From positions 32,001 through 96,000 of IMG/VR virus record IMGVR_UViG_3300010965_000001: DNA of 64,000 nt. One strand, 5' to 3'. The notes beneath the pieces were generated by a model. It worked only from the letters and a program-made list of their open reading frames with translations, ran no database searches and was not told where the DNA came from. This stretch comes from a virus (Duplodnaviria; Caudoviricetes). Below, in pieces: positions 7,591 to 64,000 of the stretch (the first letter of the stretch is position 1; each line of letters starts with the position of its first letter). Made by a program: the position numbers and the translations under genes.

Positions 7591-7602
7591 TAGTATAAAT
7601 AT
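7591..7602 (-). promoter_or_regulatory. ATATTTATACTA motif (candidate phage late promoter)
   Basis: identical 12-mer at 55422-55433 and 63222-63233, all in intergenic gaps upstream of minus-strand genes. Confidence 0.55.
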
Positions 7603-60917: not shown

Positions 60918-63191
60918 TTATGCTCTTGCTACTTTTTGTGATGTGATTTCTTTTACTAATCTACCAAATTCTCTACCATCAATTATTAATGCAGTTTTCA
61001 TGTTACGAACATCAACTTGCAAATCTTGGATTGCCTTTATAACACCAGACATGTCTACATTGTTTGAACTGCCACCGTTTACTTTACCACCCAACGATGT
61101 TCCAGCAATTACGGAATCGTTCTTATCTAATTGGTATGTTCCCTTTGCGCCAGATACAACCAAACCACCGTCAGGAGCAATTTGAGCATCCTGCACTTTA
61201 TTATTAGCACTTAACATATAGTACGCGGCTCCACCAGCAGCAAGTGCGATACCTGCTGCGATACCAAGGGTCATTGCGGATGCACCAGTTACTGCTGCAA
61301 CGGCTGCGGAAATCTGTGCGGCTGCGGCAGCCCAAAGTAATCCGACTTGTGTAACCAAATGTCCAGAAGTAATAGCATTCCACAATGCAATTCCTTTTGA
61401 TGCGACAAATATTGCACCAAATCCAACCGCAATTGATGATACTATTTTTTCCCATACTGTAAATTGTTGTGTTCCACCTGTTAATACATCTACAAGTTTT
61501 ACAATGGGTCCAAGTATACCATTTACAACTACACCAGCAACTTGAATAATTTTACCAAGTATAGGACTAAGAATTTCTGCGATATTTGCAAACATATCAA
61601 CCAATGGTTCCAATGGAGTTAATAGATTGGTAACCATACTTACGAATTTTTCCTGTAATACATTTAACTTTTCTTGTGCTGCAACCTTTTTTGCTGCAGT
61701 GTATGCCGCCTTATCGTCCGTGACTCCCAACATGAATTTCTTCTGTTGCTCAGTATCCATGCCCTTTAATTTTTCTTCCATCTGAGCACGCGCTACACTA
61801 CCAAGTTTATTTAAATTTTCTTGAATCATCAAACTTCCAGCAAGTTCATCTCTATTCATTCCAACAGATTTTGCAATTGCTTCCTGTTGTATACGATTCA
61901 TCCGTGTAAAATCTCCAGCACTTCCAACCTGTGAGAGAATTTGTTTTGTTGCACCTGCTATATCATTTTGTAACGCCAATTCTCTTGCAAGTTCGAAGTT
62001 TAAATTCTTGCCCGTGAGAACGCTTGCTTCAAATTGTGCTACAAGTGATGATTCGATATTCAAAAGACCGTCTGCTATACCATTCATCTTGTCAAGTGAC
62101 ACACCAAGTTGTTTTGCGTATACAACCGCGTCTGCCAATGCTTTTGGATTCTTAGATAATGAAAGAAATGTTGCGGCACTCATTTTTGAAATGTCTGCCA
62201 TTATACCTTTGAGTGAGAACGTCACTCCAAGACGCATTTTGGATTCAATGTTCGATTTTGCCGCCATCTCTCCCATTGTCTTTTCACTCATACCGATGAA
62301 TTGCATCTGCGTTCCAAGTCGCGCCGCCTCTGCATTTGCCATTCCCAATTCTTTGGTTAAGGCAATTTGGTCTTTGACTAATTCAAGGGATTTGCCTTGG
62401 CTAAAATCAACTGATGCCCCAAATGCTTCTGAGAGTTGATTTGATGCTTCTATCATATTTTTAACTGTTTGGAATGTCGAGCCTATACCATTAGAAGTTC
62501 TTTCTATATCAACAAACGTGTTTCGTATTTCACGTGCTTCATTTCCAGATAACATTAAAGTTTTTTGCATCTCTGAAACTTGTTCGTTTTGCTCAAACAA
62601 TATTCCAGAGATTTTATCAAATGCACCCGTTAACAAAGATATAGTTTGTATCAATCCTCCAGCACCAATGGAATCCCTGACAAGTTTAACAGCACCAGTC
62701 ATTCCATTAATTTGTGTTATATTTTTTCCAAATAAAATACTCATTGAAGTAAGCGCATCCTGATGCTTATTGTACATAGCCAACTGTGCTTCTAATGTCA
62801 AGGTTAATTGTTTTTCTAAATCAACCATCTCACCAGTTACACCAAGACCAGACTCCATATTTTTAGTATTATCAAGTTGGACTTTGTATAATTTTTCCGC
62901 AGTTTTAAGTATGTTATTCTCAGATATATAATTTTCTTTTAATTCTTTTGTTTTATCTGAATATATCTTTTTTAATAGTCCTTGATTTTTTTGCATTTTT
63001 TCTTCCAATATCCGTGTCTTATCTTGGAATTGGTTAATCAGCATTACTTCATCTTTTATCGCATCATATAATTCTAATAGGCGCTGTAAGTCCTCTACCA
63101 TTTCTTTTGGCACATCCTTCATTTTTCCCATTGCGGTATTTAAGTCATCTATTTGTTTTTTGACTTCTTCAGGTGTTTGTGGTGCTGCCAT
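60918..63191 (-). CDS. tail tape measure protein
   Basis: 757 aa helical, Ala-rich, hydrophobic C-terminal segments; FEASVLTGK.LN. Confidence 0.85.
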   Translation of the reverse strand: MAAPQTPEEVKKQIDDLNTAMGKMKDVPKEMVEDLQRLLELYDAIKDEVMLINQFQDKTRILEEKMQKNQGLLKKIYSDKTKELKENYISENNILKTAEKLYKVQLDNTKNMESGLGVTGEMVDLEKQLTLTLEAQLAMYNKHQDALTSMSILFGKNITQINGMTGAVKLVRDSIGAGGLIQTISLLTGAFDKISGILFEQNEQVSEMQKTLMLSGNEAREIRNTFVDIERTSNGIGSTFQTVKNMIEASNQLSEAFGASVDFSQGKSLELVKDQIALTKELGMANAEAARLGTQMQFIGMSEKTMGEMAAKSNIESKMRLGVTFSLKGIMADISKMSAATFLSLSKNPKALADAVVYAKQLGVSLDKMNGIADGLLNIESSLVAQFEASVLTGKNLNFELARELALQNDIAGATKQILSQVGSAGDFTRMNRIQQEAIAKSVGMNRDELAGSLMIQENLNKLGSVARAQMEEKLKGMDTEQQKKFMLGVTDDKAAYTAAKKVAAQEKLNVLQEKFVSMVTNLLTPLEPLVDMFANIAEILSPILGKIIQVAGVVVNGILGPIVKLVDVLTGGTQQFTVWEKIVSSIAVGFGAIFVASKGIALWNAITSGHLVTQVGLLWAAAAAQISAAVAAVTGASAMTLGIAAGIALAAGGAAYYMLSANNKVQDAQIAPDGGLVVSGAKGTYQLDKNDSVIAGTSLGGKVNGGSSNNVDMSGVIKAIQDLQVDVRNMKTALIIDGREFGRLVKEITSQKVARA

Positions 63192-63221: not shown

Positions 63222-63233
63222 TAGTATAAATAT
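63222..63233 (-). promoter_or_regulatory. ATATTTATACTA motif upstream of TMP
   Basis: identical to copies at 7591 and 55422. Confidence 0.55.
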
Positions 63234-63248
63234 CAAAAAAACATAAAT

Positions 63249-63482
63249 TTATGTCTTTTTTTGAGAAAGGGGATGGACTAATTGCTTTTGCTGTGGTGGA
63301 GGGGCGTCACTATTCTTCTCTTTTTGAATGATTTCTTCCAATTGACGTAAATAAAAATTGCGAAGGTAAATGGGCATGGAATAGACTTCACTATGTGTGA
63401 ATCCTCCACGCCCATATAAACAGAGAGCAAATACGTCTTGATGTATTTGGGGTTTATTCTCTGCCCGAAGGCCAAAAAAAGT
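63249..63482 (-). CDS. +1-frame extension of tail-assembly chaperone (candidate programmed frameshift product)
   Basis: 77 sense codons, no start codon near its 5' end, entered at a U7 run: TFFGLRAENKPQIHQDVFALCLYGRGGFTHSEVYSMPIYLRNFYLRQLEE... Confidence 0.6.
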   Translation of the reverse strand, partial: TFFGLRAENKPQIHQDVFALCLYGRGGFTHSEVYSMPIYLRNFYLRQLEEIIQKEKNSDAPPPQQKQLVHPLSQKKT

Positions 63483-63999
63483 CGGTGGTTAAAGGTACTT
63501 GGATTGTACTTGATTTATTACATTCAGGACATTCAAGGTCATATGACATATCAACGTCAGGTGTTGAATGAAATAATGCTTTTCTAAGTGCTAATGAATC
63601 TTGTGCTAACATCTCTTCATTAACAAACTTATTTATTATATCTTGTTTGGTTTCGCCGTCGATTGATGTAATGATATTTCTAAAACGAATTGTCATCTCA
63701 CTATCTCTACCAGTCTGTGCAGAGATTTTCTTCATTGCTTTTGCTTCTGCATCGATGTTTCGTTCATCTGCGTGTGTTGCAAGTTTAAGAATAAGATTCT
63801 TCTTAGAAATAGGAAGTTGGAATGCAAACTGTTTGGAACCTTTTGTAAATATGGATAGGTCTACTTCTTTATTTTCAAACGAAGAAATATCCACCGTGTG
63901 TTGGCTGGATTCTCCGCATTTTGGACATACAATATTTACTTCATAATCTTTACCATATGCCAAAATTCTTGATGCTACTAAAATGGCGTTTTTATCACC
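63454..63999 (-). CDS. tail/baseplate assembly chaperone (5' end outside window)
   Basis: GDKNAILVASRILAYG, CPKC, F..QLP.S, CPEC, FFWP; frame is open to the window edge; directly upstream of TMP. Confidence 0.75.
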   Translation of the reverse strand, partial: GDKNAILVASRILAYGKDYEVNIVCPKCGESSQHTVDISSFENKEVDLSIFTKGSKQFAFQLPISKKNLILKLATHADERNIDAEAKAMKKISAQTGRDSEMTIRFRNIITSIDGETKQDIINKFVNEEMLAQDSLALRKALFHSTPDVDMSYDLECPECNKSSTIQVPLTTDFFWPSGRE

Positions 64000-64000
64000 G

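Follow-up and report, generated by a model that had tools for sequence, protein, structure and literature searches.

A probable +1 ribosomal frameshift in a T4-like phage's gene for the tail assembly chaperone

The tail assembly chaperone (TAC) gene of a T4-like phage is probably expressed as two proteins by means of a programmed ribosomal +1 frameshift, a reading that is drawn from the comparison of sequences. The site lies near one end of the window, i.e. the whole stretch of 64,000 nucleotides analysed here, which is part of a complete genome of 210,562 bp; the genes near the site are all on the minus strand (Table 1). The relation between the two reading frames, the fact that both the site and the peptide encoded beyond it are conserved, the missing independent starts and the homology links are direct observations and are presented below.

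In the mechanism that we propose, the majority of ribosomes would read GAC UUU UUU UGG CCU through to UAA and produce a short form of 257 aa, of the gp26 type (TAC-N). In a minority of ribosomes, the peptidyl-tRNA-Phe on a UUU of the run would re-pair one base downstream, again on UUU; GGC would be decoded next, and 74 codons would lead to a long form (TAC-NC) of some 325 aa that ends in an additional small C-terminal domain of three helices. On the model of lambda G/GT and of T4 gp26/gp51, both forms would coat the tape-measure protein encoded by the next gene, and the rare long form would recruit another tail component through its extra domain. The efficiency of the shift and the partner of the extra domain are parts of this scheme that we infer.

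Table 1 Features around the slip site (window coordinates) and slip-site alleles of GenBank relatives
Feature	Position or phage	Strand	Remarks
gp26-like tail assembly chaperone gene, 3' part (short form, TAC-N)	63454..64000	-	PF12322 match; stop TAA 63456-63454
TAA closing the +1 frame, three codons 5' of the run	63489..63491	-	read from the sequence
Slip site TTT TTT TGG CCT	63469..63480	-	U7 run 63480-63474; next +1 codon GGC 63473-63471
+1-frame C-terminal extension, 74 codons (GGC to ACA) plus stop	63249..63473	-	homologues in 88 loci
ATATTTATA motif	63225..63233	-	between extension stop and tape-measure start
Tape-measure-type gene, 757 aa	60918..63191	-	ATG at 63191; directly downstream of the extension
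Slip-site allele TTT TTT CAC	SP-15		
Slip-site allele TTT TTT AGT	LIS04		
Slip-site allele TTC TTT CGT	GXN1, HSE3		
Slip-site allele TTT CTT TGG	immuto		
Slip-site allele TTT CTA TTC	LR756508		

Results

The chaperone gene and its neighbourhood

The genes of the region are arranged in the order sheath, NUMOD3 endonuclease-like gene, gp19-type tube, 346-aa ORF, gp26-like chaperone, extension and tape measure. The full chaperone ORF comprises 257 codons; its ATG falls at window coordinate 64227, beyond the end of the window, with a Shine-Dalgarno sequence (AAGGAG) ahead of it, and a terminator closes the preceding gene. Two genes of this neighbourhood lie outside the window: the NUMOD3-motif (homing-endonuclease-like) gene between sheath and tube (L096:2915-3631, minus strand; genome 97914-98630), and the 346-aa ORF between the tube and chaperone genes (L096:1334-2374, minus strand; genome 96333-97373), which has no Pfam match and terminates in a strong terminator-like hairpin. 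In phages immuto, Mel-JY01, SP-15, LIS04 and HSE3, the tube gene abuts the chaperone gene directly.

The chaperone matches Pfam family PF12322 (T4_baseplate, T4 gp26 “baseplate hub”) with an E-value of 2.8e-16 and 60.3 bits (cut-off, 24.5 bits) over profile positions 8-219 of 219, the portion that lies inside the window matching on its own too, and also matches phrog_150 “baseplate hub” in PHROGs (E 4e-10). An AF2 model of the protein was obtained with a pLDDT of 91.8. In an exhaustive comparison with 48,161 PDB chains, the top three structural matches of the N-domain (model residues 1-101) were 3fgx (Z 6.2, rmsd 4.8, 86 aligned residues), 3klu/YqbN (Z 5.8, rmsd 4.6, 86 aligned) and 2ob9/HK97 (Z 4.9, rmsd 4.0, 78 aligned), which are the three solved tail assembly chaperones (PMC9603447). 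The best-scoring unrelated fold reached a Z of 3.8, and all three TAC matches, although coherent with one another, stay below a Z of 8. Because these values are modest, we regard the comparison of the model as suggestive of a TAC fold for the N-domain, not as proof. Foldseek searches against the PDB returned no significant match for either the chaperone model or the extension model. The whole genome contains a single PF12322 gene and a single copy of the extension; therefore, no second gene can supply the long form.

Downstream, the 757-aa tape-measure-type gene has no Pfam match of its own, and its counterpart in the syntenic loci of immuto, LIS04 and HSE3 is annotated as tape measure protein. 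The motif ATATTTATA begins 15 nt past the extension stop. This 9-mer is found in 7 copies in the window (at 7594, 32772, 37625, 49218, 54126, 55425 and 63225), all on the minus, i.e. coding, strand, where 2.0 are expected, and none of 100 shuffled sequences reaches 7. Given this distribution, ATATTTATA is a candidate promoter element that may serve the tape-measure gene.

The slip site and the +1 frame

The 3' end of the chaperone ORF reads ACC ACC GAC TTT TTT TGG CCT TCG GGC AGA GAA TAA. Direct reading of the sequence confirmed the end of the chaperone gene, the U7 run and the codons as a preliminary description of this DNA had placed them. In the +1 frame, 77 sense codons (63482-63252) lead up to a TAA (63251-63249), 57 nt ahead of the tape-measure ATG. 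The same description held that this frame has a stop just upstream of the run and no start nearby, which is what we find. Indeed, because the upstream TAA closes the +1 frame, there is no space for independent initiation 5' of the conserved peptide, and the earliest ATG, GTG or TTG in the +1 frame after GGC is at codon 32, the M of ...VYSMPIY..., within the conserved core described below. The long form is predicted to consist of 251 + 74 = 325 aa. An AF2 model of the extension consists of three helices (pLDDT 83), and the extension belongs to no family in Pfam or PHROGs.

The 12-mer TTTTTTTGGCCT occurs once in the window, against an expectation of 0.05. Among the 142 long ORFs of the genome, the slip site is the sole in-frame TTT TTT T; this does not amount to a significant depletion of in-frame U7 in the rest of the genome (1 observed versus about 2 expected, from 13 TTT-TTT pairs). 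The -1 frame is likewise open in the window, as a 65-codon ORF from a TTG (63278-63475, minus strand). We read it as probably a chance ORF since, in nearly all of the 68 unique relatives, the -1 frame is broken by several stops, up to 8. A -1 slip, which had been described as not re-pairing both tRNAs perfectly, would bring the P-site tRNA to CUU; the -1 frame also lacks conservation.

A conserved site and a conserved +1 peptide

An IMG/VR search retrieved 80 loci with the +1 peptide as query and 8 further loci with the gp26-like protein as query. By tblastn, the peptide was detected in 88 sequences, namely the window, two GenBank phages and 85 of the IMG/VR loci. In every one of these 88 loci, frame +1 of a PF12322 ORF some 250 codons long encodes the homologous peptide, and the overlap between frame 0 and frame +1 amounts to only 23-98 nt. 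The +1 frame of relatives becomes open no more than 20-95 nt ahead of the frame-0 stop.

The slip 12-mer TTT TTT TGG CCT is identical in 62 of the 68 unique junctions; the variants read TTT CTT TGG CCT (4/68) and TTC TTT TGG CCT (2/68). The Pro codon at the site is CCT in 68/68 junctions, while CCT makes up 27% of the Pro codons elsewhere in the same ORFs. This invariance fits a constraint that would come from +1 reading of the same bases as GGC CUN (Gly-Leu). Each of the 12 positions of the slip motif, the wobble positions among them, carries 1.7-2.0 bits of information. Upstream of the site, the least conserved position is codon position 3 of frame 0 (information content 0.99/1.21/0.52), and downstream of it, the least conserved position switches to position 3 of frame +1. 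From the slip site onwards, the conserved core of the peptide is FFGL.PE.K..H.QIF.L.Y.G.GGFT.S.VY.MPIYLRNFY. The +1 ORF lacks any ATG, GTG or TTG in three loci (L042, L064 and L081), and contains only late ones in two others (L083 and L090). Together, the frame relation common to all 88 loci, the conserved slip motif, the starts missing in several relatives and the switch in codon phase bear out the claim of the preliminary description that the recoding is +1 and not -1. It had also pointed to conservation of the U-run, and to starts of their own in homologues of the +1 peptide, as telling observations. The former is seen in all but six of the 68 unique junctions, and the latter are absent or late in the five loci just named.

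A DNA-level search of a phage collection with the junction region gave no match. Relatives in GenBank, including cultured phages, were found by tblastn of the chaperone: Flavobacterium phage immuto, Microcystis phage Mel-JY01, Bacillus phages SP-15 and HSE3, Listeria phage LIS04, Streptococcus phage GXN1 and two uncultured megaphages. These share the order sheath, tube, gp26-like gene and tape measure, and the roughly 200 nt between their gp26-like and tape-measure genes are either unannotated or split into small hypothetical ORFs. In SP-15, LIS04, GXN1, HSE3, immuto, Mel-JY01 and LR756508, the +1 frame has no stop between the Phe-Phe codons and a point shortly ahead of the tape measure, and it encodes a related peptide; for SP-15, this peptide agrees with the profile of the extension at 89% (E 2.5e-6). 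A frame-0 UUU with a pyrimidine after it is kept in all 68 unique junctions as well as in SP-15, LIS04, GXN1, HSE3 and LR756508 (see alleles in Table 1).

A sister clade with a -1 site, and T4 genes 26 and 51

In Synechococcus phage S-WAM1 (L099:3100-3370), Aeromonas phage Aeh1 (L100:3150-3380) and megaphage LR756511 (L097:1950-2230), the conserved open frame after gp26 is the -1 frame. These loci carry the heptamer U_UUU_UUC on the same Phe-Phe codons, i.e. a canonical X_XXY_YYZ site; in the cyanophages and Aeh1, a stop comes one codon later. The -1 frame is used in 67/67 unique cyanophage-type IMG/VR loci (from L101-L180). The -1 extension of the cyanophages and Aeh1, of about 60-67 aa, is unannotated and reaches the tape-measure-like gene. 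In S-WAM1, Aeh1 and LR756511, the gap between gp26 and this large gene is about 170-190 nt. The +1 extension profile and that of the -1 extension of cyanophages and Aeh1 are homologous (hhalign 95.4%, E 1.7e-8). A tree of gp26 separates, with 100/100 support, T4, Aeh1 and the cyanophages (-1 or no extension) from a second clade, in which the window groups with its relatives and with the Firmicute phages (+1). LR756511 uses the -1 site yet sits on the +1 side of this tree, on a long branch with weak support (88/46). Thus placed, it raises the possibility that the direction of the frameshift may have switched more than once.

Both T4 gp26 (E 8.8e-64) and T4 gp51 (E 3.9e-52, residues 1-201; gene 51 at L092:4480-5229) match PF12322. 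T4 gp51 consists of the PF12322 domain and a tail of about 48 aa, and its residues 200-242 align to the -1 extension profile of the cyanophage side (hhalign 52%, E 1.5e-4). Direct profile comparison of the window extension with T4 gp51 was negative (0.2%), as was that with T4 gp28. The link between the extension and gp51 is transitive and passes only through the cyanophage -1 profile (95.4%, then 52%). No extension follows T4 gene 26 in either frame. On these alignments, T4 genes 26 and 51 resemble the two chaperone forms, short and long, each with a gene of its own.

A 2016 review still listed T4 as an exception to the G/GT rule (PMC5009743). Vladimirov, Gautam and Davidson (Virology 2022;566:9-15), as cited in PMC10885494 and PMC12846349, describe gp26 and gp51 as the TACs of T4-like phages; according to the same two citing papers, some T4-like phages have a short and a long gene in place of frameshifting, and the TAC-N genes of T4-like phages contain poly-T slippery sequences. 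Our comparison supports this published view, in which the general G/GT rule takes a derived, two-gene form in T4 as genes 26 and 51. The earlier premise that T4-like phages use no such shift is outdated, since gp26/gp51 are published as the T4-type TAC; the site of the sister clade is a canonical -1 one.

What accompanies the proposed slip

The codon in the A-site at the slip is UGG and not a stop; the frame-0 stop is 5 codons further. Upstream of the site, where the codons are ACC ACC GAC, the window contains no Shine-Dalgarno-like stimulator. A “hungry” A-site codon was considered as well and is unsupported: in the codon usage of the genome, the +1 codon GGC (5.4 per 1000) is rarer than UGG (12.3 per 1000). 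The 3-bp UUCG hairpin that had been noted beside the run does exist as GCC-UUCG-GGC (63472-63463), 1 nt past it. However, its proposed role as a stimulator has been dropped because RNAalifold, applied to 33 sequences, gives 0 pairs and thus no structure that is conserved downstream of the site; the fold of the window's own sequence at the site has a z of -1.85. UUU_Y is especially prone to +1 shifts in bacteria and is the likely site in YopN-TyeA (Atkins et al. 2016, PMC5009743). It is also commonplace, 375 of 1325 UUU codons in the long ORFs of the genome preceding a pyrimidine. Since UUU_Y is this common, it cannot alone account for a programmed level of shifting.

A bolder version of the proposal, which we advance tentatively and with some doubt, is that in the clade of the window the +1 slip at UUU_UUU_UGG_CCU takes place unaided by a stop, a rare A-site codon, a Shine-Dalgarno-like element or RNA structure, while the sister clade performs a -1 tandem slip at U_UUU_UUC, so that one chaperone family would have switched direction on the same Phe-Phe pair. 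If the +1 site alone does set a useful level of shifting, it would represent a minimal +1 signal in bacteria of a type that has so far not been characterised. The +1 and -1 clades would then form a natural matched pair for what sets the direction of a frameshift, and the phage's own tRNA-Phe, tRNA-Trp or tRNA-Gly(GCC) might perhaps assist the +1 shift. The phage encodes 34 tRNAs and a tmRNA (genome 170373-189916, outside the window); among them are those that would operate at the slip site, namely Phe(GAA), Trp(CCA), Gly(GCC) and Leu(AAG).

Other routes to the long form

Protein sequence and frame would be identical to those from a ribosomal +1 shift if RNA polymerase dropped one U on the T7 run, such that a fraction of the mRNAs had U6 and encoded the fusion in frame. 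Homopolymer runs are a known substrate for the polymerase (reviewed in PMC5009743), and a T7 run is present in 62 of the 68 unique junctions. In the other six, however, the run is interrupted (T3CT3 or T2CT4), and the +1 ORF is still kept in +1 relatives that have T3-T6 only (GXN1, HSE3 and LR756508, as well as SP-15 and LIS04 with T6). Runs of three to six T are too short to be expected to support polymerase slippage, and seven is at the low end for efficient slippage in bacterial transcription. We consider this route unlikely. A -2 ribosomal shift would reach the same frame, the peptidyl-tRNA-Phe on the second UUU moving back two bases to give ...DFFFGL..., with one extra Phe. Re-pairing would be perfect on the T7 allele, and the preliminary description cited a precedent in the tail chaperones of phage Mu. 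Nevertheless, in the alleles TTC TTT TGG, TTT CTT TGG and TTC TTT CGT, such a shift would entail a non-cognate landing on UCU or UUC, whereas the +1 slip from UUU to UUY is cognate in every allele, and we hold a -2 shift to be decidedly improbable. A ribosomal +1 slip in the P-site is favoured over both routes because the tRNA-Phe stays cognate after it in every allele (UUU_Y), because a -2 shift re-pairs well only on an uninterrupted T7, and because slippage needs a long homopolymer. We thus infer that the shift is ribosomal and not transcriptional.

The downstream peptide might also belong to a separate small gene with its own start, namely the 42-codon ORF at 63249-63377 that begins at the ATG of ...SMPIY.... 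This ATG is present, at extension codon 32, and the GenBank records of immuto, SP-15, HSE3 and Mel-JY01 annotate small ORFs of this sort as hypothetical proteins. The conserved peptide begins at the slip site, though, 31 codons ahead of the ATG; three relatives have no start codon and two have very late ones only; and a frame relation to the upstream gene that is fixed in 88/88 loci would be needless for an independent gene. The chance that the extension is a gene of its own is, in our estimation, very small. Slighter still is the chance of a homopolymer assembly error, with a true genome of T6 or T8 and hence a plain in-frame fusion or a pseudogene. Homopolymers are error-prone in some sequencing chemistries, but T7 with the same frame relation recurs in 62 independently assembled junction variants, and the non-homopolymer variants hold the two frames apart in the same way. 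In view of the fixed +1 relation, the conservation of site and peptide, the missing starts and the stops in the -1 frame, neither a separate small gene nor a -1 shift nor an assembly error explains the observations well, and the +1 ribosomal frameshift is the reading that we retain.

Discussion

The long form is missing from all seven of the public records inspected that have a +1 site (immuto, Mel-JY01, SP-15, LIS04, GXN1, HSE3 and LR756508). The region is left blank there or filled with small ORFs labelled “hypothetical”, so that a conserved tail-assembly protein escapes gene callers and annotation pipelines. The group over which this protein is missed is large and consists mostly of uncultured marine, freshwater and Firmicute-infecting myophages. 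For recoding biology, UUU UUU UGG CCU offers a simple and highly conserved +1 motif without the usual stimulators, and, with the homologous -1 site of the sister clade for comparison, what determines direction and efficiency can be tested in reporters. We found no description of a +1 UUU UUU UGG CCU site in the literature covered, in which Vladimirov et al. 2022 is represented by papers that cite it. For an archaeal myovirus, a TAC shift in the +1 direction has been put forward (PMC5009743).

Among characterised +1 sites, the closest in their slip include the UUU_Y sites of E. coli argI and Yersinia YopN-TyeA, where a P-site tRNA on UUU slips +1 onto UUY or UUU (PMC5009743). The influenza PA-X site UCC_UUU_CGU (PMC5009743) is nearly copied by the GXN1 and HSE3 alleles UUC UUU CGU, and four alleles read CUU UGG, which resembles the CUU_UGA of prfB (PMC5009743). 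The prfB site has an in-frame stop and a Shine-Dalgarno-like element 3 nt upstream; the site in the window has neither the A-site stop nor the Shine-Dalgarno-like stimulator. Unlike these UUU_Y, PA-X and prfB cases, the shift proposed here would add a C-terminal domain and would not serve autoregulation.

Among phage tail genes, the comparison is with lambda gpG/gpGT (Levin 1993; Xu, Hendrix and Duda 2004; reviewed in PMC5009743), where two overlapping frames likewise lie between the tube and tape-measure genes. The lambda shift is -1 at G_GGA_AAG and that of the window would be +1 on a U run; moreover, the window's chaperone is about twice the size of gpG and has an extra CxxC-containing domain. 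T4 gp26/gp51 belong to the same PF12322 family and follow the same logic of a short and a long form. In T4, however, the long form comes from a separate gene, while the phage studied here has one gene and a recoding site. Close as well are the gp26 genes of the cyanophages, Aeh1 and LR756511, in which the chaperone, the Phe-Phe slip pair, the C-terminal domain and the place upstream of a tape-measure-like gene are all homologous to those of the window's clade, the difference being the -1 direction there and +1 here. Since the gp26/gp51 TAC is published and the sister clade shifts -1 at a canonical site, nothing but the +1 direction is unusual; the system is very probably a forward-slipping variant of a known phage device and embodies no new principle.
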